Assembly (NCBI GenBank): GCA_000934665.2
Contig: JYFJ02002754.1
Location: 1-51,554, forward strand
DNA: 51,554 bases
Direction: 5' to 3'
Source of the DNA: Catajapyx aquilonaris
Lineage: Eukaryota
The first letter of the stretch is position 1. Every line of letters starts with the position of its first letter. Made by a program: the position numbers and the translations under genes. Of the stretch, positions 3,323 to 51,554 are shown piece by piece. Below the pieces are notes generated by a model, which was not told where the DNA came from, did no database searches, and worked only from the letters and a program-made list of their open reading frames with translations.

Positions 3323-6300
3323 ATACAGTAAATACTTCCTGGTGAACCTTGTCTTGCAGTAAAATAAAATGAGGGAAATTCAAGTTGTAAAATCTTAGCT
3401 AAATAATGTTTACTTGAAAGCAATCTTTCCCTTACTGTACATTAGATTGTACCGTTATGCTAGTTCCTATTTATTATTGCCACACTGAGTATTTGTCATG
3501 AGTCTGTAGCATGTGCAGGCATGCTTGCCCGTCAGGTGTCTCATAAAATGACTTAATTGTTGTCTAGTTTCCTTCATCTCTTTTACGAGTGTGGAATGAA
3601 GTTACTGTTAGATGGATAATAAATCAAGTTGTCAAGATGCCGTTGATATTTTGCACTCTCACTTAAGCCACTGTAGGCTATATTCGGCCATAATAACACG
3701 CAATAATAATATTGAACGTGTGAGTGGAAAAAGGATTACATTCAAGTTTTCCTTTTTTATGTGTTTACAAACGAAAGAACCAGTTTTATTGAAAAGGTAT
3801 ATTAGACACTTATTATATAGGCTTCTTCAATTAGTCTTCAGTCCCAAAATAAAAAAGTGAAATGCTCATTAGTTCATGCCTGAATTAATTTCCCACATCT
3901 TCACTCACCCGTTCAAAAGTTAGTGCCATATTCTCATCTTTCCCTTAAGTGACCTCGACACTACATTATTGTATTTTTATATTATCTTCACACATTATGT
4001 TATTTTAAGAAAACCTGTTTAAAAAAAGTGGCCTATATTGTACCTCAACACCTCAACACAAAAAATGGGTTACAACGTAGAGTCAACAGGACATCCTCGA
4101 AGCGTGAGAGGAGCCTACCTATATTACAGCATGAAAGCATTTTTTGACTGTGAATGACCGTAACTGCAACGGGCAATGCGAAAAGAAATTGGGTTTCGGA
4201 TGAAAGGGGGGTAATGTCCCGTTGCCTAGACCCCAAGAACATTCGTTCACACTACAAGTTTGCGGTGGGTGACTTTTGAAAAAACCAAAGACGCGCGCAG
4301 ATTGAAGAAAAGGAATGCATGCATGGTCGACCACACATGTACGCAGGTAGGCCGGTCGGTCGGTCGGTCGGTCTTCTGTTTGCTTCCTCGTCTCTTTCAT
4401 TCGTAGTCTGAAAGTCTCGGAAGTCTCCTTGTAACCCACTTTTGCCCTTTTGTTACTCTCGGCAGTCTGCTGAATGAGGAAGACAGTTGTTCGTAACCCA
4501 TAGAGGAATACTAGTCGTACTTTTCAGTTGGGGGTAAGCTAGTCTTGGGCGTTTATTGAGGACGATGGAAGAAGTGGAGGACCTTGGTTACCTTGCCCGC
4601 TTTTTGTGACAACAGCTGCGATAACCGGTGAGGCAATTTGCTTTCGTTTAAGGCGTACGCAACTGCCTACGCTTTTGCTCTTAGATTATGAAAGGATAAC
4701 ATGGTTTCTTTGTATACTTTCCTATACTTTATTCTGCAAGGTCATACAGGCATGTGGTGGTAAAAACTTATTGTGATCTGTTGCTAAAATACGTACAGCA
4801 TAATATGAAGTAATGCAGTATTTACTAGTGTGTTATTTGCGACCTTGGTGAACGTGCAATTGGGGGAATATTGCAGCATAAATTACTTTCACGTAGCAGG
4901 TGCTTTTGTGGTCAAGTTTATTGGAATACGAAGCGTTATGAGTGTTTTCAGAATAAATCTAGCATTATTACGTTTGAGCATGTTGTCAATGCACCCTCGC
5001 GTAACACTCAGCGCCGTCACAGCTTTTTAAAAATAATTAAATAGCCAATATTAATCATTAAATGCGTGTCCCCTTGGACAATAACACTTTAGTGCTAATA
5101 AAACAGGCATATCACTTACTATCACCATGTTAGCAAGGAATGTTACAAAGCATAATTAATCGTGAATTATAGGAGCCAGAATGTTTGCACGCGAACGTCC
5201 ATAATAATTCATTTAACTGTAGATGGTCATGACTCATAATAATTATCACGTAATAAGTAGGTTATTGCATGATTCAAGATGACTTTTCCAAGGTCATGGT
5301 ATGTATGAGCAACATTTTCATTTGAAAATGCTGCATAACTTGAAATAATTGCACTGAAAGTCTCCGGCAATTCCTCAATATACACAACGCAGTCATCACA
5401 ACCATAAAAATGTTAAACCTGTTCAGACAGAATGTCCAGTAACCCTCCTCCCTAAAATAAGAACATCAACAAAAATCGTCGCTTGATTTTTAAATGCGAA
5501 ATACCGGAACTAACAAACTAACTGCTTTACCTTTAACTAATTCGACTACAAAGAGCTAAATGGCCCCCGCGATATACAGATATTATACGTAGTTATGAAA
5601 CTTTGAAAGTTACTTAATTTCTAATCCACTATGCCTCACATGCAAACACAAGGAAGTGTACAAATATATAAGTCTAATATCACAAGAAAATAATATAAGA
5701 AGTTATCTTCTTTGCGGCCAGAACAAGAGCAACTCATTGCTAGCAGGTCAGTATTTCAAGGCAAGCCTTTGTGAAGGATGATATTTTCACACATTCTAGC
5801 CTTCAAACTACTGCACAATACAAAAAAAGTTAATTTTAGGCAAATAAAACACAATGGGCTCATATCTTACAATCGCACATATGTGATGCGGTAATGAATT
5901 TTTCGAATTGAAGAGTAACAGGATTTGCATGTTGTGCAGCAGAAACATTTGGGCAATGGGCAGTGATTCTACCTAAGTGCAAATAGGTTTTCTGATCCCA
6001 ACATTGTTTTGGTTTATTTATTAACGTCCTCATTAATATCAGTGTAAAATTCAGCCCGTGGCACGTGCCGGTTGGCTTGTCGCTCACTTCCAGTAAAGGT
6101 AGGCTTCTAACTAAATAAGACGGTAACGAGCGATGATAAATTAGGAGTACTGTACCGTAGAGAGGTGGAGAAAAAACGTATAGGTGGAAAAGAAAGCTGG
6201 CAAGGAATTTGCTTATTCTTAAGAGGCGGTGGCGGAGGAGGAGTCGGTGGGGAAAGATGGGAATCTCGTCAGGTGAGTATAAGGTGAGTTTTTGTTGGCT

Positions 6301-39141: not shown

Positions 39142-42100
39142 ATGGTACGGCCGTTTCTTCCGCGGTATGGCTCGGGGTACTCCCGGCTGCTGCCTCGGCT
39201 GGAGCGGCTGCAGCAGGATCTTACCAGGACCAACCGCAGGGCGGCTGAAGAGGAGGAGGACGAGGACGAGGAAGGGTTGCAGAGCAATGGGTACCACCGT
39301 CGAGGAGGAGGAGGAGGAGGATGGTCCTCGTGGGGAGAGGCGGTCGGACGGGGGCTGGGCGGCCCATGGGCGCTGGCCACCCTGCTGGCAGCCACCTCTC
39401 TGTCCACAGCCCCTTCGCACGCCCTACCATCGGCCCTGCTGGCCTTCCTGTCCAGCCTGGTGTCCGGGCTGTGCTTCCTGGAGATGGAGACTGTCTGGAG
39501 GAAGGGCAGGCCGGCGCCCAACCTGTACCGGGCAGTCTTCGGCACCCTGGGGGAGTTCCCGGCCTTCGTGGTCGGATGGGCTTGGGTCTGCTGCATGGCC
39601 TGTTCCCAGGCAGGGGCGGCCAGGGCTGTCACGGCCCTGGTCGACTCGGCCTGCGGAGGACACCTCAGGCAGCTGGGGGTCTCGCTCTTCGGACCCGAGT
39701 CGCCACTAGGGTTCTTCTTGGACTTTCCAGCCTTTGCTGTTGCCGCCCTTCCATCCATTCTATGCGCCTGTGGACTTGAGGTATTCCATGGAGAGGTCAA
39801 AGACTCATATGGTAGTACTAGCTGCACTATCAGTTAGGATGGTCCTGTGAGGGTTTGATACAAATGAACACAAATTGGAAAAATTCTTCGATTGTGTACA
39901 TGTATTTACCGTAGGCCACACATAATCGTGTTTTTTTTTTTAAATAAATGCATTGATACGAGCATTTGACCTTCGTTGAGGCACAGATGGAAGTAGGATG
40001 CCAACCAATATTGTTTGCAACAATACACCTATCAATTAATAACGAGGATAGATCTGCAAGTCCAATCTCCCTTCAATTGTGCAATCAGGGCAGTGGGTGA
40101 TTTTTTATATATACCTCTGTAATCTTTCCATAGTACAGTACCTACCCTATATTATATAAGTAGCCCTGAACTGATGAGCATGATAATGCGTGATTCATGG
40201 TACGTAGTACCAAACTTTGGCCTACATTTCATCAAAACATATCACCTGCTACTGGCTGTATACAACCATCAATGATAATATTGCTATTGGGCCATGTTTC
40301 TTTAGCAGTGTTATCAGGTGTTATCTAATCGGGAAATTTTTCTAATAAATAAAAGATAAAGTACGGTGGCGGTATTTCCACCTTCACCTGCTTGTGCCAG
40401 ATGTCCATTTATCCTGGAACACTGCAACACTCAAGGCATGACACTTTTCCTTAACTGACAAGGTTATTAGTATAACTATCTTGAAACTTGGCAGGGAGGA
40501 AACTTTCGCAAGTTTGTCCTGCTCTTGGAAAGCCTTACTGATGCTCTCCAGTCATGATCATCATGTGGTACATTAGGCAATGCTGCTCAAGAATAATGTG
40601 TCTATCTATGCACAGACAATAATAATTAAGTATTACTTTTAGTGCTATTCACTGTGTCATACTTGATGTTGCAAGTAGTCACATCAACAAAATACTGTAT
40701 CCTTTTCTTGAGTGTTTGGTAATTATTTTGCAACACCAAAATGCTTTGAAATATATAGTAATATCATGTATCTTTGGCACAGGACTCACCATTGCTTCGT
40801 CTAGGCCTCAACACAGGAGTTGCATTAGCAACAGTTACCATAACTCTAACTGGACTTACAGCCCCTGAGCCCACTTCCCTTCCTCCAGTACAGGACACAA
40901 GCCTGGCATACTCTGTAAGTATATGCACATTAGCCTACATGAATGTGCCGGTTCAAATGTCCAAGCAGAGTATGTATCCGACTAACAAGAACTTTACCAT
41001 TTTCAGCTTCTGCATGGAGCTGGTGTACTAAGCTTGGGATGCATTGGAGTTTGGGGTGTTGGAGGACAAGCAAGAAGGTTTCATCGCCCACGAGCTGTCC
41101 TGTCCACATCTGTGGCCTTGGGGTTGTCAGCTTCACTGCTCTCAACAATGGCTATTGCTTCTGTGCTGCCCCTTTGGGCCACCTCTGCCCCACTGGCAGC
41201 ATCAGAGCAATCACTTGGTGTCGGAGCAGCCTCTGAATGTCCCCTTGCTGCCCTTTTGGCCCCTAGAGAAGGACCAGGGGCCAAGCATGGGGTGTGGTGG
41301 TGGTTGAGATTGGCTTCTGTGTGTCTGAGCATCTGGAGTGTTGGTTTGGCACTGGTAGAGGCAAGTCTCGGGGTGAAGGCTGGGGTGGTGAGGATGGCCA
41401 GGGATGGACTGCTGCATAGGAAGTTGGCAGACATCAGCCAGTCTACAGGAGCACCCATTAGGGCCGTGTTGGCCTTTGGTGGAGCCTCAGCATCCCTTGC
41501 TCTGCTGCTTGACCTACCCACATTGATTGGTATGGCAGCCTCTGCAGCACTTGTCACTCAGGTAGCCTACAAGTTGTTTTCCAAACATAAGGATTTTGGG
41601 AATCTGTGAAAAAATTTGATTTTGAAGTGGAAACATGCACAGGATATTAATTTGTTGCCCTTACATGATAATTTTAAAGCTATGACTATGACTAATCAAT
41701 CTTGTAAGGGAAGGCTTCCTAAGGGTGCGAGCCCATGGAATAAACAAATAATAATAATAATATGACTAATCAAAAATGTGTTTTGCAGATACTACTTTGC
41801 ACTGTGGCACTGCAGCTGAGATACCAGACGGATGTTGTGACACCTCCATCGCCAGTATTGCCGGACCCTGAAACTGTACGAGAAAGTCGCAACCAGGCTG
41901 TGGTCTGTTTTTTAAAGGATGGGTTTCAGGACTTGCCTACAACTATTGTCGATGAGGAAGATTATGCTGGTGGTGCCTGTAGTGTTGCTAACAGTGCAGG
42001 TGAATCCAGCAGCAGTGGCCATCGCAAAGCATCAACATCATCGTGGTCATCTTCAGGAGCATCGACAGCATCAACCCTGCCATGCACTGCCTTGTTGGGC

Positions 42101-43761
42101 ACCACTGAAGAAGGGCCACCATTAAAGAGATCAGAGGTTGCATTAAGCCGACTCCCACTACTTGATGAATCACCATCTAGCGGACTGGACACAGACTCCT
42201 CCGAGTCAGATGATTCAGATGAGACTGACATTGATGCTGTTGTGGCTGAATATGTTGAGCGGGTTGGAGTTGCAACCCTGACTGGGCTTGGCTCAGGTGC
42301 AACAGCGACACCAGCCACAGCCAGACGTGTGTCCCTTGCACTTGTGGCTCTGTTGGCCTGTGCAGCTGCCCAAGCACTAGCACTAGCCCCTGGGCCTGCC
42401 CCAGGACAGCAGAGATCTTCTTCCCCTCCCTCTGCCCTCGCCCTGCAATTGGCAACTGCTCTGGTTGCATTCCTGCTTCTGGCACTCATCCTAAGGCAGC
42501 CGCAGAGGAGGCCACCCACCCGGGTTCAGCCTGGGGGAGGGCCTTGGGTCTGGGTGCCCCTCTGCCCCTGGTCACATGCAGCTGCTCTCTTCCTCAATGC
42601 AGTGTTGCTGCTTTGTGGGCTGAGAGATTCCGCCCTCTTCTCTGCAGCGTGGTGGGGCATAGGTCAGTGCAGACATGTCATGGTACAAAAAAATAGCCTC
42701 CTAATATCTGGAAATCAGAGGATTGCTTGCTTTGTCTGGTGTTTTTTGATGAGGCAGGGAGGTTGTAACTAGTTGATGCAATGCAAATGTGATATAACAG
42801 AATGGTGCAATTGGATATTCACTTACCTGGCACATCCTTGCTACATTTTCAATAAGGGGCAATCTCATGATCCCCAGATCATAGATGCGCACACACCTCT
42901 GCATTTTTTGTCTCTCACAGATACATGTTTGACCTCAAGCCATTGTTGCTATGTCATCAGCTTGATGTTCATGGAATTGTTAATAATGGTTTTCATATTT
43001 TAAATGGTTACCTGATTTAGGTATCGTACTTTCAAAGTGATATGTTGAGATTTAGAGAAATATTTTTGTTACATGTAGTTTTATTTTTCATTCTGGTTTT
43101 AAATATAATTTGCTTTTACTAGTGCAATTTAGCACCGCTTTTGGTATTTAATTTCCACCTCACTCTGCAACAGGCTTAGTTATATTATTGTAGAGATTAC
43201 TAGTATGAAGAGCTCTTGCTAGTATACTGTGTTGGTTTTTAAAATGGATTGTCAATGAAACAGTTAATGACATGAAATTCAGAACATTCAGAGTCACATA
43301 TTGGTCAAAATAATATTGGTAAAATGTCGTAAAGTGTGGCTCTAATATTGTTCTGTATTTCAGGTCTTCAATAATTATTATTACCTGTCATTATCCCAAG
43401 ATTTATGTTCCTGAAAAATATAACTTGCTTCGTATCTTCACACGGGATAATAGCATATATTACATGGCGTCAATGTGTGGGACACACTTTATTCAATCTC
43501 GTTACTGATTACATTTCAGGCCTAATAGTGTACTTCAGTTATGGGATCCACCACAGTGTGGCTGCTACATCCTCACTGTTGCTGTCTTCTCCCGATGGCT
43601 CGTTGCAAGAGCGATGCAGTAGCAGGCGCAGAAGACCTTACCTCCATGTCAAAAAACCCTCCTGTCTGATCTCACAAGCCATTGCCAGGAGAGAAGCAGA
43701 TGGAGAGGACAGTGACTACCAGCACCTGACTCGTGTTGACACAATCCTAATTGCCAGGTGA
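39142..43761 (+). CDS. Divergent SLC7 cationic amino-acid transporter-like membrane protein (SLC7A14-like architecture), ~813 aa
   Basis: Exons 39142-39780, 40783-40914, 41007-41561, 41789-42662 and 43520-43761 join in frame. CAT-family segments: LSGLC-like LVSGLCFLE, GEFPAFVVGW, MARDGLLHRKLA...TGAP, ALQLRYQ, WVPLCPW, GLIVYFSYGIHHS. A long acidic Ser-rich insertion is present. Confidence 0.8.
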
Positions 43762-45768
43762 CACTCCTCCTTCCAGCCATCATCATCCCCCATCTTTTCT
43801 CTCTCTCAATTAATGCAATAACATAGCTTCACAATGTACTCACCGTTGTTGAATCTCTGCTGCAGTGTAAGGGCCTTGGTAGGTGAACTCGAGCCGAACG
43901 AACAAACCAGTCCCAAATAAATAAGGATTTGTCCATTTGGCTCAAGTCAGCTACTGCGGGCATGTTTTTTGCTGGTATCCAACATAAAGTCTGCTGGCCG
44001 AATGGATCAGACGTGCTGACACTACACCTTTTGCTCTTTCCCCTACATACGTATATTTTCCTTGCACCTGGACACGTGTGCACTATTCATCACCTCATAT
44101 CCATTACAGCCCTCACCCCCACCCCACTCGACTTCAACATATGCAGCTCTCTGTGTTGTTTTCTCTTCACATGTAAATGGATTTTAAAAAGCAATATTAA
44201 ATCCACCATATACACGACGACATTGTGGTTTTCATAATTAACTTTTAGGTAGTTTTAATTGTGCGGGAAACGGTTTGATGTGTATCATTTTGTCTGCAGA
44301 GGTAAGAAAGCTGGTTAAAATGCACATCTGGCAGTACAAAAAAGATGAGATGCAAGTGTTCGGTTGATTGATGGCAGGTTCTTTCCACACCAGCACCTGT
44401 CCATTGCAGGGAGAATGTAGGGCAAAAAAGGGGAGGAAAAAAAAAAAAAGAAGGAAAGGCGAAACTAGGTAGGATGGCACAGTCAAGCAGGTAGCTGAAT
44501 AAAGAGGAAGCAGCTATGCATAAATTACCAATAAAATTTATTCAGCATTAATTAGTATATCTGTCACTTTATTCCCTTCAAGGTACCAATTCCTAGAAAT
44601 TCGATGTCAGTGCCATTTTATGAACTGTAATTATCGGTAATTATAGATGCAATGGTATCATCGGAAATGTTAAATAGGTTTTATCCCTCGGTACGTATGA
44701 GCGTGTATGAGCCAATAAAATGCTGCATTTGTTTTTTTTTGATTATCCAGTAACCCACCCTAAAATAATTGCACTATGACGTAACCATGGACGTAACCGT
44801 CTTGCGCAATTTGAGCATTAGCGCGTCATGGTTGCCAGGCGAATTGACCGCAACGGTGCCACGTTTTTAATTACAAACGTTTTATCGAGAAAATGGGCAT
44901 AATTAATTCTTCTTGCTAAAAATAGCAATTGAGACTATTACAATCGGATTAATTTCACGTTCTATTTGTTCGATTGCACAGGAGGAATCGGATGTTGCAC
45001 CACTGCAAGCCACGTTGCCAAACTTCCCACTGGACTGTTTTTTTCCAAGTCCGTTTCTATTTTCTCTTTTTCTCGAGCGTCACCGTCCACTGAATTCTAT
45101 TCGTCACTGTTCAGATTACGTCCATTTTACGTGGCATCGTCCGACAATTACAGTGCCTGGCGCCTTGTGGTGCACTCCAAAGAGTGGGTGGGAAGCAGGG
45201 CACAGTGGCAACCCCGCCTGCCTGACTCGGTTCCTTCCTTCTTTTTGTGGTCCCCTGTGTGTCGGGTGAGTTTTCCTCGGGCTCTTGCGGGACTTTATTT
45301 TTTTACGTAATTACTTAGCCACATACTGAGCCAGGTCCACACAAAAATCCAGACGTAAAGTTACAACAATCGCGTTGGGAAAAAAATATATAATTGTAAT
45401 GGGCAATATTGGTGATGTGGTCATAATTCGCAGAAATAATTATTTAAAAAAAAAATCGCAGTGATCAGTCACGTCAGAGGTAGGCTGCCTGCATTTTAGT
45501 GGGAGTGCAGTTTTTTGTATTTTTAGAAAGTGTCCTTTTTGATGCAGTGACGCCCAGGTTGAGATATCGATTTTTTTTAAAGTTGTGGGCTCAATTTTAG
45601 CATAGAATTAGTCATGAGATTTCATTTAATGTGCTTTTTCTTTGTGCAGTGTGGGGATCCGACGTTTTAAGAAAACATTTTAGTTGCCACTCCAGTGGAA
45701 GCTCAACCGATAGCCTGAGAGCCTTTGAGTGAAGCAGCAAAACTCGAGGAGTTTTTAAACACTGCAAG

Positions 45769-48727
45769 ATGCCGTCTGACGCAAAGAAGAAGCGGGCGGA
45801 GAAGAAGCGGGAAGCCGCCAAGGCGAGGAATGCACCCAAGAAGCAGCAGCCCAAGGCGGAGAGCAATGGGATCAGCAATGGGGATAAAGAGGAGGCTGTT
45901 AGCCAGGAAGGTGAGCTCATACTATGTTCACATACTCAGTTGGCATTGTACGGGAGTGAACTAATGAAGGTTCGAAGCATCAGGAGTTGGCAGTACTTAC
46001 AATCTATATGTTTTCCAGAACTTCTGTGCCGCAAGCTTGAGGAGGATGCCTGTTTAAACTCCAAAGCTCGGAGCTGTACTGGGGTCCTGGCCGTGCACCC
46101 TCGCAGCCGTGATGTTAAGATTGGGACCCTTTCTCTGACTTTCCATGGATGCGAGTTGTTGCAAGACACCACATTGGAGTTGAACTGTGGGCGGCGGTAC
46201 GGCTTGGTAGGCTTGAACGGGTCTGGAAAGTCCAGCCTGTTAGCTGCCCTTGGGAATCGAGAGCTCCCTATTCAAGATCATGTGGACATATACCACCTCA
46301 CTAGGGAGATCCCTGCTTCAGACAAGAGTGCACTGCAGGTTGTGGTCGAGGTCGATGAGGAGAGGACTCGACTTGAGAAGTTGGCGGAGGAATTGGCACA
46401 TCAAGACGACGAAGGTTGGTTCATTCTCATGGTCCATTGGCACTAAAGCATCAATTATTTTGAGTTTGCTGGCAATGTAAAATTAAGGTTGCGGAAGATT
46501 CAGAGTGTCATTTTATTTTTAAATGTTGCAGAGTCGCAAGAGCAATTGCTAGATGTCTATGAGCGAATGGAAGAGATCAACGCAGACTGTGCTGAAGCAA
46601 AAGCAGCCTACATCTTGAATGGGCTGGGGTTCAGCAGGGAAATGCAGCTGAAGCCATGCAAGGACTTCAGCGGAGGATGGAGAATGCGCATTGCCTTGGC
46701 ACGAGCCTTGTATGTGCGCCCCCATCTTCTCCTGCTCGACGAACCCACCAACCATCTCGATTTAGATGCATGCGTGTGGCTGGAGGAAGAGCTCAAGACG
46801 TACAAGCGAATTCTGGTCGTGATCTCTCACTCGCAGGATTTCCTCAACGGTGTGTGTACCAACATCATCCACCTCAACAAGTGCAGGCTCAAGTATTACG
46901 GGGTGAGTTTTGTTCAAGCTTTGCAGAATATACATTCAGAATAATCAGTGAACTAATGTACAATTGCTTTTACAGGGGAATTACGATGCATTTGTGCAAA
47001 CTAATATAGAGCTGCTGGAGAACCAGATGAAGCAGTACAAGTGGGAACAGGATCAGATTGCGCACATGAAGGTGAATCTTGTGACGTTTGAATGCATTCT
47101 AATGATTATTATTACCAGTGCTAAAACATTAGCTGGATTCAGCTGGCGTGCTATAACATCCACATTCAGGAACATGTACATCACATGTTCCTGAATGAGG
47201 ATGTTACAGCACACGAGCTCAGATGAGATGTAAAGTAAATTTTTGCCTTTTTGTACTTGTGGACATGAGACATGAGCATGGAGGAGTGATGACATTGAAG
47301 GCCGAGGAATTGAGCTTCTCTGATGGTTCTGGTTGGCCCCAAAATAATGATTTGGATGGCCCCGGACTCCCAGAGTACTCAATGATCACACAGGAAGCGA
47401 TACCAATTTGTTACCTGACCTCCATGCTCTTTCCAGACACAGCAAAGACATTTATAAACAACCTGATCCTCCATTAATCCTTGCCACACTCGTCATTCGT
47501 ATCCCTTGATTTGTTTAAATGCAGCTTTTTGCAATGATATTTAAAATTTTAGAGATGCCTACCTTGCACGAGCCAAGAGTAGGAGTATTTAAGCCTATTA
47601 CGCACGTGTTTCTGAATTAGACTTTGATCTGCCTAATCTAGTTGGATGAAAAGTGAGACCCTGCTAGTCCATGTTTCTGAATATGATCTTTGGAATATTG
47701 GTGCTAGTTGTGTTTCTAGCCTGTGAATTAATACAGAGGTATTGAAAGTGTAATATTATTGTACACTTCACAATTGTCATTTTAAATTTCTTTCACCAGA
47801 ACTACATTGCCCGATTTGGTCATGGCAGTGCAAAGCTCGCTCGCCAGGCCCAGAGCAAGGAGAAAACTCTAGCCAAGATGGTGAACAAGGGCCTGACGGA
47901 CAAGGTGGTGTCAGATCGCATTGTTCACTTCTACTTCCCATCCTGTGGGAGTATACCCCCACCTGTCATCATGGTCCAGAATGTCAGCTTTCGCTACACT
48001 GGGAGTGGTCCATGGATCTACCGAGGCCTGGAGTTTGGAATCGATCTGGACACGCGCTTGGCCCTAGTGGGCCCAAATGGTGCAGGAAAGTCCACGCTCC
48101 TGAAACTGCTGTATGGGGAGCTGGTTCCAACAGAGGGCATGATCCGCAAGAACTCACATCTGCGCATTGCTCGCTACCATCAGCACCTGCACGAGCTGCT
48201 GGATCTGGACCTGTCTCCCCTGGAGTACATGATGAAGAGCTTTCCAGAGGTGAAGGAAAAGGAGGATATGCGCAAGATCATTGGAAGGTATGGGTTGACT
48301 GGCCGTCAGCAGATCTGCCCTATCCGACAACTGAGCGATGGGCAAAGGTGCAGGGTGGTGTTTGCATATTTGGCCTGGCAGGCACCGCACCTCTTGCTGC
48401 TGGACGAGCCTACCAACCATCTCGACATGGAGACCATAGATTCTCTGGCCGAGGCCATTGCAGACTTCGAGGGAGGAATGGTGTTGGTATCTCACGACTT
48501 CAGGCTCATCAGTCAGGTGGGTAGTCAGAGGTTTGCATTGGAAGGTTGGATTGTTTGGCTTTATTGGTACAAATGTTCAATTGTTTCAGGTGGCAGAGGA
48601 GATCTGGGTGTGCGAGAAGGAGATGGTGACCAAGTGGCAAGGGGACATTGTCAGTTACAAAGATCACCTGAGGCAGAAGGTGATGAACGAGAGTGCGAGA
48701 GTGCAACGGCTTTACAAGAAAGACTAG
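45769..48727 (+). CDS. ABCF2: ATP-binding cassette sub-family F member 2, ~619 aa
   Basis: Exons 45769-45910, 46019-46414, 46532-46902, 46976-47071, 47800-48516 and 48590-48727. MPSDAKKK N-terminus and two nucleotide-binding domains ([52 protein letters not shown]). No transmembrane domain. Confidence 0.96.
47141..47219. repeat. 37-bp near-perfect hairpin in an ABCF2 intron
   Basis: Arms 47141-47177 and 47183-47219, with 4 mismatches and a 5-nt loop. Confidence 0.85.
47274..47429 (+). ncRNA. Intronic box C/D snoRNA/scaRNA candidate
   Basis: Perfect 11-bp terminal stem GAGCATGGAGG (47274-84) / CCTCCATGCTC (47419-29). It brackets box C GTGATGA (47286-92) and box D CTGA (47415-18) in canonical geometry. 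There is a long internal hairpin and a C'-like ATGATCA (47382-88). It lies on the sense strand of an intron of a translation-related host gene. Confidence 0.82.
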
Positions 48728-49555: not shown

Positions 49556-50245
49556 TTAGATCAGGTCAGGTGCAGGCACCTCAGGGGTCTGACCTTGGTT
49601 TGCCCTCATCCCTGCCTCCTGTGCCAGTGCTGCCTCCCGCAACACCAGTAAGTGTCTGTCTACATCTGCCAGTGTGTCCTCAACCCAGCAGCACATGATA
49701 GCCCCTGGACCTCTAGGTCCTGCTGTCAGACTGCGGGTCAGCAGGGCCAGATGCGACACACTCAACACCAGGGCTGCAGAACGTGCCTCCAACAAACGGG
49801 CGTCCAGAGGAGGATACAAGGCCCTCACCACGTCATCGACACGAGGCGAAATGCGTCGAGCAGCACGACCCATCTCTTGGAGGCGTGATGGTGGCAAAGG
49901 TCCCATAGCACTGGCGATGAGTCTCTCTGTCAGCTGATGACATGTTTTGAGCACAGCTAGGCAGTGAGGGACAAGTCCAGATGCATCCCCAACCCAACGC
50001 TGGTCACGCAGTATTTCCTCCAAAGCCAGCGGAAGCCCCAGGTCAACCTGCTCCAACTCGAGGGGATCTTTTGGAGCTTCCTCAGTGTCCAAGTCTGGGG
50101 AAATCAGTCTTGTGGCACCAGTGGAGAAGATGCGGTGCTGGCAGTACTTGTGGCGACAGACGAAGAGGAGCGCCAGAAGAGATCCCAGAAAGACAGCAGC
50201 AAGGATGCCAATGGCCACTGCCACCACCGTCTCCATACCGGCCAT
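49556..50245 (-). CDS. TMEM98: Transmembrane protein 98, single coding exon
   Basis: METVVAVAIGILAAVFLGSLLALLFVCRHKYC N-terminal TM segment, plus WVGDASGLVPHCLAVLKTCHQLTERL and RISPRVDDVVRALYPPLDARLLEARSAAL. In-frame ATGs at 50332, 50245 and 50236; 50236 matches the vertebrate start. Confidence 0.92.
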   Translation of the reverse strand: MAGMETVVAVAIGILAAVFLGSLLALLFVCRHKYCQHRIFSTGATRLISPDLDTEEAPKDPLELEQVDLGLPLALEEILRDQRWVGDASGLVPHCLAVLKTCHQLTERLIASAMGPLPPSRLQEMGRAARRISPRVDDVVRALYPPLDARLLEARSAALVLSVSHLALLTRSLTAGPRGPGAIMCCWVEDTLADVDRHLLVLREAALAQEAGMRANQGQTPEVPAPDLI

Positions 50246-51554
50246 GGGATTGGCAGTCAGGGTCAGAGTGGCCGGTGGAGGGGAGGTCAGCGGAAGGCTG
50301 GGGGTCGGCGACACTGGAAGCTGCTTGTACATCTAGGGGCACATCACACGAGTCCGCCGCACTTCTGACTTCTCTTCTGTTTGATACAAGATTGCGTTAT
50401 TAGCCAGGAATAGTCACGTGAAGAAAAAGCCATAGGAAGTTCAGTATGTGAGAAAGTTGACATTGTGCCACAGCAATTTGTACAACAGTAGCTCGTTGTG
50501 TGTTTGTCTTTTACAATGAGTGAAGCAGTGGTGAGTGGTGACAGAGCATGAAGGTCAGAAAGAAGTGTATGTGAAATGAACATGATGAGACCTTTCTAGT
50601 GTACAACTCCTCTCTGCTGGCCAGTGCTGAGTAAGTCAAACCCAGCCCTCAAATCCAGCTGATACGAATGGTACCAATGTGGTAGGAATCCGCCATCATC
50701 TTTCCTTCCTCCAAGTATTACCACCAACAACAACCTGTGCCTAATCCCACCCCCTACCTACGTACCCCTAACCCCTCCATCCATCCATCCTGCCTCCCTC
50801 CCACATTCCTTTGTATGGAGGAGGGAGGCTGAGGAGGATGATGATGCAGCATGAGCGAGGGAGGCCTTGGGGCGATGGGGGTACTTGCTTGCGTGCGTGT
50901 TGGGTAATTGGGGCCTGGGGAGATCCTCTCATGTGTAGCAAACCTGTTGCCATGGCGGATCACATTACAAATATGCGGGCATCATGCCTGTAGAATGATG
51001 AGCACTGTAGCAGTGTAGGACACCTGAGCTGGTATGTCCTGGCGCCAATTTGTTCACATTTCAGTAGACATTGATTACCAGCAGCCGGGACATATTCCGC
51101 GACAAAATCAGTCGTAAAAGACCAAGACGTTAATGGGAATGAAGGAATTTCTTCAGTTGCAGGAGAAGTCATAGCTTGTAGCATCAGAAGTAACGAAAAT
51201 GAGCAGCATGTTTGTTCCTTCGTCCTGTTGCCTATAATAAATTGCCAATATCAAGACATAGGCATATTGAAAATTTAAATTCGGTATGCTAATGCATATA
51301 CGTGGCTGAATAATATAAACTGAAATTGCCCTAAGGCGTGTCATTGATGCTCCCGGGTAGGTCAACTCCTTGGTACAGTACCGTGCATAATAGCATATAA
51401 CAAGTGTAAACAACGGCTTTGGCGTTACCTGGCAACTGGGCGTGTTCGGAAATCGCCATGTGGAGAGTGCTTAGCGTTCTTTCTATTGATGCCACGTTGA
51501 TGCTGGGCAACCTAGCGACGGGTGTGCATGCTTACCAATCAGGCGCGGATCCAG

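Follow-up and report, generated by a model that had tools for sequence, protein, structure and literature searches.

The closest described system to the RNA reported here is vertebrate SNORD89, also named HBII-289 (RF00578), an intronic box C/D RNA whose guide after box C is directed to the 5' region of U2. According to the sections of two papers on which we draw, vertebrate splicing needs U2 Gm11 and Gm12, for which a guide was assigned only recently (PMC6984369, PMC11863803). The same sections report that SNORD89 guides U2-Gm12 in a yeast assay (PMC6984369), that Gm11 falls by 72% and Gm12 by 37% when it is knocked down, and that it uses the D' guide with a degenerate D' box of sequence UUGC (PMC11863803).

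A feature of guide RNAs that is relevant here is extra base-pairing. In the section of van Nues et al. (2011, PMC3116282) used here, it is described as pairing of 4–11 bp that is located in the second guide region, away from a D box, sometimes with an overlap of 1–2 nt with the guide, and the examples are yeast snR75, snR13 and snR87 and human U16. For Drosophila, the section of PMC3884663 used here describes mgU2-25, -28, -41 and -48 as the only U2 guides, none of them for the 5' part of U2, and counts at least seven snRNA modifications without guides. Drosophila C/D scaRNAs have the CAB consensus cgaGUUAnUg, and the Cajal-body signal of vertebrate intronic C/D scaRNAs is a G·U/U·G wobble stem. 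Two antisense arms are also known from SNORD13, snR4 and snR45, bipartite box C/D RNAs that guide rRNA acetylation and whose arms keep the target cytidine free of pairing for the acetyltransferase.

A box C/D RNA in an ABCF2 intron

The window, i.e. the whole stretch of DNA analysed here, is 51,554 nt long. On its forward strand, positions 47274–47429 contain a 156-nt box C/D RNA, and no second copy of it is found within the window. Box C (GUGAUGA, 47286–47292) and box D (CUGA, 47415–47418) are read directly from the sequence and are joined by a terminal stem, in which the 5' strand GAGCAUGGAGG (47274–47284, 11 nt) is 100% complementary to the 3' strand (47419–47429) and forms a perfect 11-bp inverted repeat with it. 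The whole RNA folds with −63 kcal/mol (z −5.4), a stability reached by none of 200 shuffles. The apical hairpin at 47309–47383, folded alone, has −28.3 kcal/mol (z −3.6; again 0/200 shuffles equally stable) and consists of the helices AUUGAG/CUCAAU, CUCUG/CAGAG, GGCC/GGCC and CCAAA/UUUGG. An earlier examination without database searches, referred to here as the sequence-only reading, had proposed these boxes, the 11-bp stem and the hairpin helices, and direct reading, the inverted repeat and the fold confirm each of them in its place.

The hairpin lies between a candidate D' box UUGA (47310–47313) and a candidate C' box AUGAUCA (47382–47388), which agrees with RUGAUGA in 6/7 positions. Formation of a C'/D' kink-turn is doubtful, because both motifs are degenerate and UUGA is base-paired within the predicted hairpin. 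In the predicted fold, two segments termed arm 1 and arm 2 converge on a single junction by way of this hairpin.

The RNA is located in sense orientation in a GT..AG intron of 728 nt (47070–47797, forward strand), with distances of 204 nt to the 5' splice site and 368 nt to the 3' splice site. The flanking exons translate to a pancrustacean ABCF2, and a spliced RNA-derived contig of run X5, which also contains spliced ABCF2 mRNA, joins 47069 to 47798 and proves the intron. A separate 228-nt contig of the same run covers 47235–47462 at a depth of 2.3. The remainder of the intron has no cover in run X5, which we do not count as evidence. Our literature search returned no relevant report of a snoRNA in an ABCF2 intron, nor for CG9281.

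Complementarity to the 5' end of U2

Two targets had been suggested from the letters of the RNA, the 5' end of U2 and a stretch of 28S rRNA. Compared with two published sequences that stand in for the host species' own U2, a forward primer for Drosophila U2 and a U2 substrate from vertebrates, the complementarity proposed for U2 is exact. The segment AAGGCCGAG (47298–47306) is the Watson–Crick complement of U2 nt 8–16, with G11 and G12 included, and GAAGCGAT (47394–47401) is that of U2 nt 1–8. Arm 1, the putative D'-linked guide (47298–47308), extends this pairing to 11 bp and to U2 nt 6–16 by the wobble pair G47307·U7 and the pair A47308–U6. Arm 2 (GAAGCGAU, 47394–47401), a candidate accessory antisense element, is separated from box D by a spacer of 13 nt (ACCAAUUUGUUAC, 47402–47414).

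Taken together, 9 + 8 Watson–Crick pairs span U2 nt 1–16 without a gap. When the 122-nt interior of the RNA is shuffled 20,000 times with its dinucleotides preserved, a two-arm Watson–Crick cover of 16 never occurs and the maximum is 15. Cofolding of the interior with a U2 20-mer predicts a three-way junction (gain −20.1 kcal/mol), and the apical hairpin is retained in the predicted target complexes. When the whole RNA is cofolded with the target without constraints, either intermolecular pairs are absent or the terminal stem is lost; since the concatenated representation cannot combine terminal stem and target pairing, we do not use this calculation as evidence. In the minimum-energy fold of the naked whole RNA, arm 1 is sequestered. 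In the literature search, nothing relevant linked AAGGCCGAG to a snoRNA, and the U2 16-mer in RNA letters gave no match.

Relationship to SNORD89

At gathering thresholds, Rfam reports only mir-375 and a tRNA in the whole window. In a permissive scan of 4227 families, SNORD89 is the only snoRNA model that aligns end to end with the RNA (model positions 1–114), with 15.4 bits at an E-value of 1.3 to 2.8; against a gathering threshold of 41 bits, this falls short of Rfam membership. With a score so far under the threshold, homology to SNORD89 rests on short shared elements. The Rfam match is independent of the antisense argument. Further permissive matches to archaeal sR2, sR28 and sR44, to PVT1_7 and to CLRN1-AS1 were judged to be noise.

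The elements of human and mouse SNORD89 were read from the primers and antisense oligos printed in PMC11863803, together with the Rfam consensus. Human SNORD89 carries AAAAGGCCGA, complementary to U2 nt 9–18, followed by AUUGCAG, and human and mouse SNORD89 both carry GAAGCGA (U2 nt 2–8) with ACCA...CUGACC after it. These elements recur in the window RNA, and their order is the same. After box C, which aligns to its counterpart in the SNORD89 model, a guide complementary to U2 around G11/G12 is found at 47298–47306, with the GGCCGA core in common. It is followed by a degenerate candidate D' box beginning with UUG, at the place of the vertebrate UUGC, where the human and mouse primers GAATTGCAG align to GAATTG-AG of the window. 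Upstream of box D, GAAGCGA is present at 47394–47400, extended by U47401, and is succeeded by ACCA..., box D and the CCUC stem. The segment CUGACCUC at box D aligns to the SNORD89 consensus, which also shows ..AGCG..CUGACC and shares the inner stem GAGG/CCUC with the window RNA.

The two RNAs differ in several respects. The window RNA is 156 nt long, compared to 114 model positions, because of its much longer apical hairpin. Its guide has three more nucleotides before D' than the human guide (G, G, A), which also pair with U2 C8, U7 and U6. UUGA is thereby moved 3 nt further off, so that the partner of U9 is the fifth nucleotide upstream of this motif, A47305, and that of G12 is the eighth instead of the fifth. 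Arm 2 reaches U2 A1 and comprises 8 nt rather than 7, and the spacer to box D, although it begins with ACCA like the human one, has 13 nt instead of 9. The host gene is ABCF2, while for human SNORD89 we take it to be RNF149.

We regard the window RNA as a real intronic guide RNA and, most probably, as the arthropod counterpart of vertebrate SNORD89. Of the two suggested targets, the U2 5' end is the one that the analysis supports. The RNA belongs to a known kind of RNA and is not a new class. The sequence-only reading had held that the RNA could not be assigned to a known family and that a match to a characterised family would remove its novelty. The first statement does not hold, as SNORD89/HBII-289 fits, and by the second most of the novelty is gone, with the reservation that the Rfam alignment is full-length at 15.4 instead of 41 bits.

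Low read support at a depth of 2.3 would be compatible with a chance hairpin or a decayed snoRNA copy without function. Such an origin would have to account for perfect boxes with an 11-bp stem, for 16 contiguous positions complementary to an invariant snRNA end and for a layout that matches a characterised vertebrate guide, and of all explanations it is the one to which we give the least credence. As for relatives elsewhere, a metagenome scan for the boxes and the core common to the U2 and 28S readings (at least 50 loci) gave 50 matches listed, none of which resembles the RNA. Among the 119 matches listed in scans of viral sequences (5 loci) and genome contigs (at least 112 loci) for box C, arm 1 and arm 2, none has a D box together with a stem of at least 5 bp.

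Pairing with 28S rRNA and other targets

The second suggested target would make the RNA a bipartite guide or chaperone for the peptidyl-transferase region of 28S rRNA, with arms on 4443–4451 and 4430–4440 (human numbering) and with CCGA as the D' box that points to C4447. As sequence, this proposal is correct: the stretch exists and has the same letters in human (4430–4451) and Drosophila 28S, the arms form 9 bp with one G–U pair and 11 bp with three, and the cofold gain for the 22-mer, −20.3 kcal/mol, is as large as the one for U2. The fit nevertheless requires four G–U pairs in total, and for this single 22-mer it is reached by 48 of 20,000 shuffles, so that roughly 7 kb of rRNA would be expected to contain about one match of this kind. 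Over a whole rRNA the pairing does not exceed chance. Neither human or mouse SNORD89 nor the Rfam consensus contains the extensions CAUUG and CAG that produce the fit, and the CAU of CAUUG can instead pair with nt 17–19 of a Drosophila-type U2. In addition, CCGA sits within the U2 guide, only 9 nt from box C. We therefore consider a 28S guide or chaperone very unlikely, and a dual U2 and 28S target is without support.

The RNA could also be a canonical guide for another target, with the U2 match being secondary, if it used CUGA at 47320–47323 as D' box or, alternatively, the 13 nt that precede box D. This CUGA is a perfect D-box motif, and two archaeal sRNA models align weakly to 47282–47325, though with E-values of 0.67 to 4. 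It is located inside the CUCUG/CAGAG helix, and vertebrate SNORD89 does not retain it at the corresponding place. Neither guide has an 8–9-mer complement in the human/Drosophila rRNA alignment, in which spaces or line ends could hide one; for the 13 nt before box D, this agrees with the earlier remark that they match no recognised target. A guide of this type appears extremely unlikely to us. Two short matches inspected by eye only, a SNORD13-like target at the 3' end of 18S and pairing of 7 bp between the D-box spacer and the 3' region of U2, were dropped.

Proposed mode of action

We consider it likely that the RNA is an intron-encoded box C/D guide of the SNORD89 type that is two-armed on U2 nt 1–16, and it is probably a Cajal-body RNA (scaRNA). 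It would be freed from the ABCF2 pre-mRNA and would then assemble with the box C/D proteins. The two arms would meet at the base of the apical hairpin on the first 16 nt of U2 and form a three-way junction. Arm 1, directly 5' of the candidate D' box, is the putative catalytic guide that would place fibrillarin on the U2 5' region. Arm 2 would occupy the otherwise unused second guide region; at 13 nt from box D it would be incapable of directing methylation and would act by extra base-pairing, stabilising the complex and keeping U2 nt 1–8 open. The strict +5 rule, counted from UUGA, predicts 2'-O-methylation of U9. No report of U9 methylation was found in the parts of the U2-modification literature that were covered.

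A clear Cajal-body localisation signal does not emerge. The best CAB-like matches to the Drosophila consensus are 7/9 at 47303–47312 and 6/9 at 47340–47349 in the apical loop. UGAG occurs once, at 47311, and the GU-rich strand 47324–47336 is paired with C-rich sequence and not in wobble pairs.

The degenerate D' and C' boxes, with UUGA paired in the hairpin, allow for a different function, in which the RNA binds U2 nt 1–16 without methylating it and serves during snRNP maturation as a chaperone or clamp, either keeping stem I of U2 open or blocking the U2 5' end. The 3-nt shift that places +5 at the junction nucleotide U9 is consistent with this, as are the many snoRNA–target contacts with low methylation scores reported by Song et al. 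in the section of PMC11863803 used here. Against it, vertebrate SNORD89 still directs methylation with a poorer D' box (UUGC), according to the same section, and the pairing of arm 1 from position 2 to 12 upstream of UUGA resembles that of active guides. We regard a clamp that does not methylate as unlikely.

For the preferred reading, a methylation guide with an accessory arm, arm 2 has the properties described for extra base-pairing: it is distant from box D, its pairing with U2 nt 1–8 abuts or overlaps the arm 1 duplex, and it is conserved from the window RNA to SNORD89 of human and mouse. Both arms of the non-canonical two-armed guide that had been suggested before do exist and recur in these vertebrate RNAs, but known extra base-pairing explains them better than a new class does. 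Similar to the guides in the section of PMC3116282 used here, the window RNA has a conserved second antisense element in an unused guide region that pairs beside the putative methylation target. Those guides, in contrast, act on rRNA, and HBII-289 is absent from the human examples in that section; the target here is a capped snRNA 5' end, on which two duplexes cover nt 1–16. The Drosophila scaRNAs (mgU2-25, -28, -41 and -48; scaRNA:MeU2-C28) are likewise arthropod intronic box C/D U2 guides with an internal stem, and none among them targets U2 nt 1–16. With SNORD13, snR4 and snR45 the RNA shares two antisense arms that pair on either side of a target point. In the window RNA, however, the arms abut or overlap, and one of them would be a normal D'-linked methylation guide.

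Implications

As a tentative proposal, which we see as possible rather than probable, SNORD89-type RNAs could represent an ancient, bilaterian-wide two-armed clamp that engages the entire capped 5' end of U2 (nt 1–16/18) within a three-way junction. Arm 2 would then be an unrecognised conserved functional element, and the 3-nt extension of the arthropod guide would shift the register from G12 to U9, giving either a lineage-specific Um9 or a methylation-independent chaperone. The U2 5' sequences later form stem I and U2/U6 helix II, at positions known from the established U2 structure; if the proposal is true, the chaperone would control access to them.

The window RNA opens no new RNA class. 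An arthropod counterpart of SNORD89 would nonetheless provide annotators with a seed for insects and crustaceans, where the Rfam model fails, and it could fill a gap, as the Drosophila literature, in the parts covered, describes no guide for the 5' part of U2. It would also point to a conserved arm 2 on U2 nt 1–8 and to a shifted methylation register, both of which are testable, and it would place the origin of this guide earlier than the divergence of arthropods and vertebrates.

Box C/D anatomy and the ABCF2 intron

The candidate RNA at 47274-47429 (+) is built, in order, from an 11-nt stem strand, a single A, box C (GUGAUGA, 47286-92, +), a 122-nt interior, box D (CUGA, 47415-18, +) and a second 11-nt stem strand. 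Both boxes can be read directly from the sequence, and the two stem strands form an inverted repeat that is 100% complementary over 11 nt. The whole RNA folds at -63 kcal/mol (z -5.4) with no equally stable shuffle among 200, and the hairpin 47309-47383 folded alone (z -3.6) shows the pairings listed in the sequence-only reading. The boxes, the 11-bp terminal stem and the internal hairpin proposed there are borne out by sequence, inverted repeat and folding. We consider it very probable that this is a genuine box C/D RNA.

The reading frames on either side code for ABCF2; the exon 3' of the RNA reaches up to 91% identity with its insect counterparts, drawn from many orders, and 88% with a cladoceran one, which places the source among the pancrustaceans. 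One contig of sequencing run X5, the kind of which is not on record, splices 47069 to 47798 across a 728-nt GT..AG gap, which proves the intron and the presence of RNA-derived sequence in this run. A second, separate X5 contig (47235-47462, 228 nt, depth 2.3) comprises the RNA with flanks of 39 and 33 nt and hints weakly at a stable RNA. Our literature search found no relevant report linking ABCF2 or CG9281 to a snoRNA.

The same intron contains an inverted repeat at 47141-47219 (37 nt, 89% complementary, 5-nt loop), 55 nt 5' of the box C/D RNA and ending just before the start of the covering X5 contig at 47235. It may represent the terminal repeat of a transposon or else a hairpin RNA; several miRNA hairpin models match it sub-threshold, the best with 35.8 bits vs thresholds of 57-100. 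Two intron stretches, 47082-47115 and 47649-47683, also find matches, with 3-4 differences per ~34 nt, among other contigs from X1, a DNA run, and are probably dispersed repeats. Long open frames flanking ABCF2 at 49556-50332 (-, 258 aa) and 41744-42772 (+, 342 aa) are probably exons of neighbouring genes. Rfam places a mir-375 precursor at 43882-43950 (-; 49.1 bits vs a gathering score of 46.7, E 1.1e-08), on the strand opposite to ABCF2 and ~1.8 kb before its first coding exon, and a tRNA match at 341-412 (-; 39.7 bits) with the aligned anticodon loop CUGCUAA and without a long variable arm.

Similarity to SNORD89

The sequence-only reading could assign no family. This holds at Rfam gathering thresholds, where none matched, but in a permissive scan the vertebrate SNORD89 (HBII-289, RF00578) was the only snoRNA model aligned end to end (model positions 1-114, 15.4 bits, E 1.3 to 2.8), well below its threshold of 41 bits. 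RNA and model have in common 5' GAGGA-UGAUGACA and 3' CUGACCUC, and the Rfam consensus also contains ..AGCG.. shortly 5' of box D.

SNORD89 is a former orphan that positions U2 Gm12, as confirmed by a yeast assay whose substrate was the first 24 nt of U2 (PMC6984369, where re-annotation as a scaRNA is advocated). A review table assigns Gm12 to SNORD89 and Gm11 to scaRNA2 (PMC7960923). According to the text of PMC11863803, chimeras of SNORD89 with U2 map to the 5' end of the latter, Gm11 falls by 72% and Gm12 by 37% on SNORD89 knockdown, and contact is made through the D' guide, whose D' motif (UUGC) is divergent.

Two antisense arms and their probable target

As the first hypothesis of the sequence-only reading had it, a script confirmed full Watson-Crick pairing of AAGGCCGAG (47298-306), in arm 1, with U2 nt 8-16 and of GAAGCGAT (47394-401), arm 2, with nt 1-8. 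Both pairings are exact against the Drosophila (forward primer, PMC13228274) and vertebrate (substrate, PMC6984369) U2 sequences, and one G.U and one A-U pair lengthen the arm 1 duplex to U2 nt 6. For human and mouse, pieces of SNORD89 can be read from the primers and antisense oligos given in PMC11863803. In the 5' piece, available for human, 10 nt complementary to U2 nt 9-18 precede AUUGCAG; GAAGCGA, complementary to nt 2-8, occurs in the 3' pieces of both species and in human is followed by ACCACUAGU-CUGACC. At the matching places our RNA reads GGCCGA-GGA-AUUG-AG and GAAGCGAU-ACCA...CUGACC. Because matching elements occupy matching places, the split antisense guide is common to this RNA and vertebrate SNORD89, and in human the two U2 duplexes abut exactly at C8|U9. 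The passages searched in PMC11863803 make no mention of a second arm. When the 122-nt interior was dinucleotide-shuffled 20,000 times, the cover of the U2 20-mer by two Watson-Crick arms never came to 16 (maximum 15), giving p below about 5e-5 for one chosen target. The match remains unlikely by chance over a few hundred non-overlapping rRNA/snRNA windows.

The second hypothesis takes the peptidyl-transferase region of 28S as target. Here the C preceding GAUG, counted along the alignment row, is C4447, which we take to be the NOP2 m5C site. The stretch is real, human 28S 4430-4451 being identical to the Drosophila sequence in the supplement alignment, and the cofold gain of the interior (-20.3 kcal/mol with the 28S 22-mer vs -20.1 kcal/mol with the U2 20-mer) is equal, so energy fails to separate the two readings. 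The shuffles count against 28S: with G-U allowed, its observed cover of 20 is reached by 48 of 20,000 (p 0.0024 for one chosen target), vs none for the Watson-Crick cover on U2, and such a match is expected by chance about once over a few hundred rRNA/snRNA windows. Its specific extensions CAUUG and CAG are absent from the human and mouse pieces and the Rfam consensus, and since CAU pairs with nt 17-19 in the Drosophila-type U2 cofold, even CAUUG has a U2 explanation. The known function of the related SNORD89 also lies in U2. A dual target, U2 and 28S, is conceivable.

Arm 2 fits what van Nues et al. call 'extra base-pairing'. As described in PMC3116282, such elements are conserved and often lie in an unused second guide region, not beside the D box; they measure 4-11 bp, in some cases with a 1-2 nt overlap with the guide, and can raise methylation as much as five-fold. 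The list in its section 8 does not name HBII-289. Unusual C'/D' motifs with extra pairing can yield methylation of two neighbouring nucleotides, as stated in the abstract of PMC5389607, which agrees with the Gm11/Gm12 result reported for SNORD89.

Register and relatives

Alignment to the vertebrate UUGC places the candidate D' at UUGA (47310-13, +); the candidate C' is AUGAUCA (47382-88, +). As both are degenerate and UUGA is base-paired within the predicted hairpin, D' and the methylated base are putative assignments. Relative to vertebrate SNORD89, three extra bases (GGA or GAG) stand between GGCCGA and AUUG, all able to pair with U2 (C8, U7 by wobble, U6). With guide bases numbered upstream from UUGA, base 5 is A47305 and pairs with U9, so the strict rule would predict Um9; base 7 pairs with G11 and base 8 with G12. 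With score below threshold and register off G12, we do not place the RNA in RF00578. A study of Drosophila S2 cells found no U2 methylations other than Um48, Cm41 and Cm28 and is silent on nt 1-16 (PMC13228274).

The text of PMC3884663 gives mgU2-25, -28, -41 and -48 as known Drosophila C/D guides for U2 and counts at least seven snRNA modifications without guides. The text of PMC4041459 gives cgaGUUAnUg as the Drosophila C/D CAB consensus and a G.U/U.G wobble stem as the vertebrate signal; our RNA matches the former at best in 7/9 positions (47303-12), and in 6/9 in the apical loop. A metagenome scan returned at least 50 loci, chance matches, with none of the 50 listed resembling the RNA, and among the listed matches of viral and prokaryote-genome scans (at least 119 in all) none had a D box with stem.

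We conclude that the RNA most likely works like SNORD89 and that the two probably share an ancestor. There is a good likelihood that it serves in Catajapyx aquilonaris as a methylation guide for the U2 5' end with an accessory second arm.
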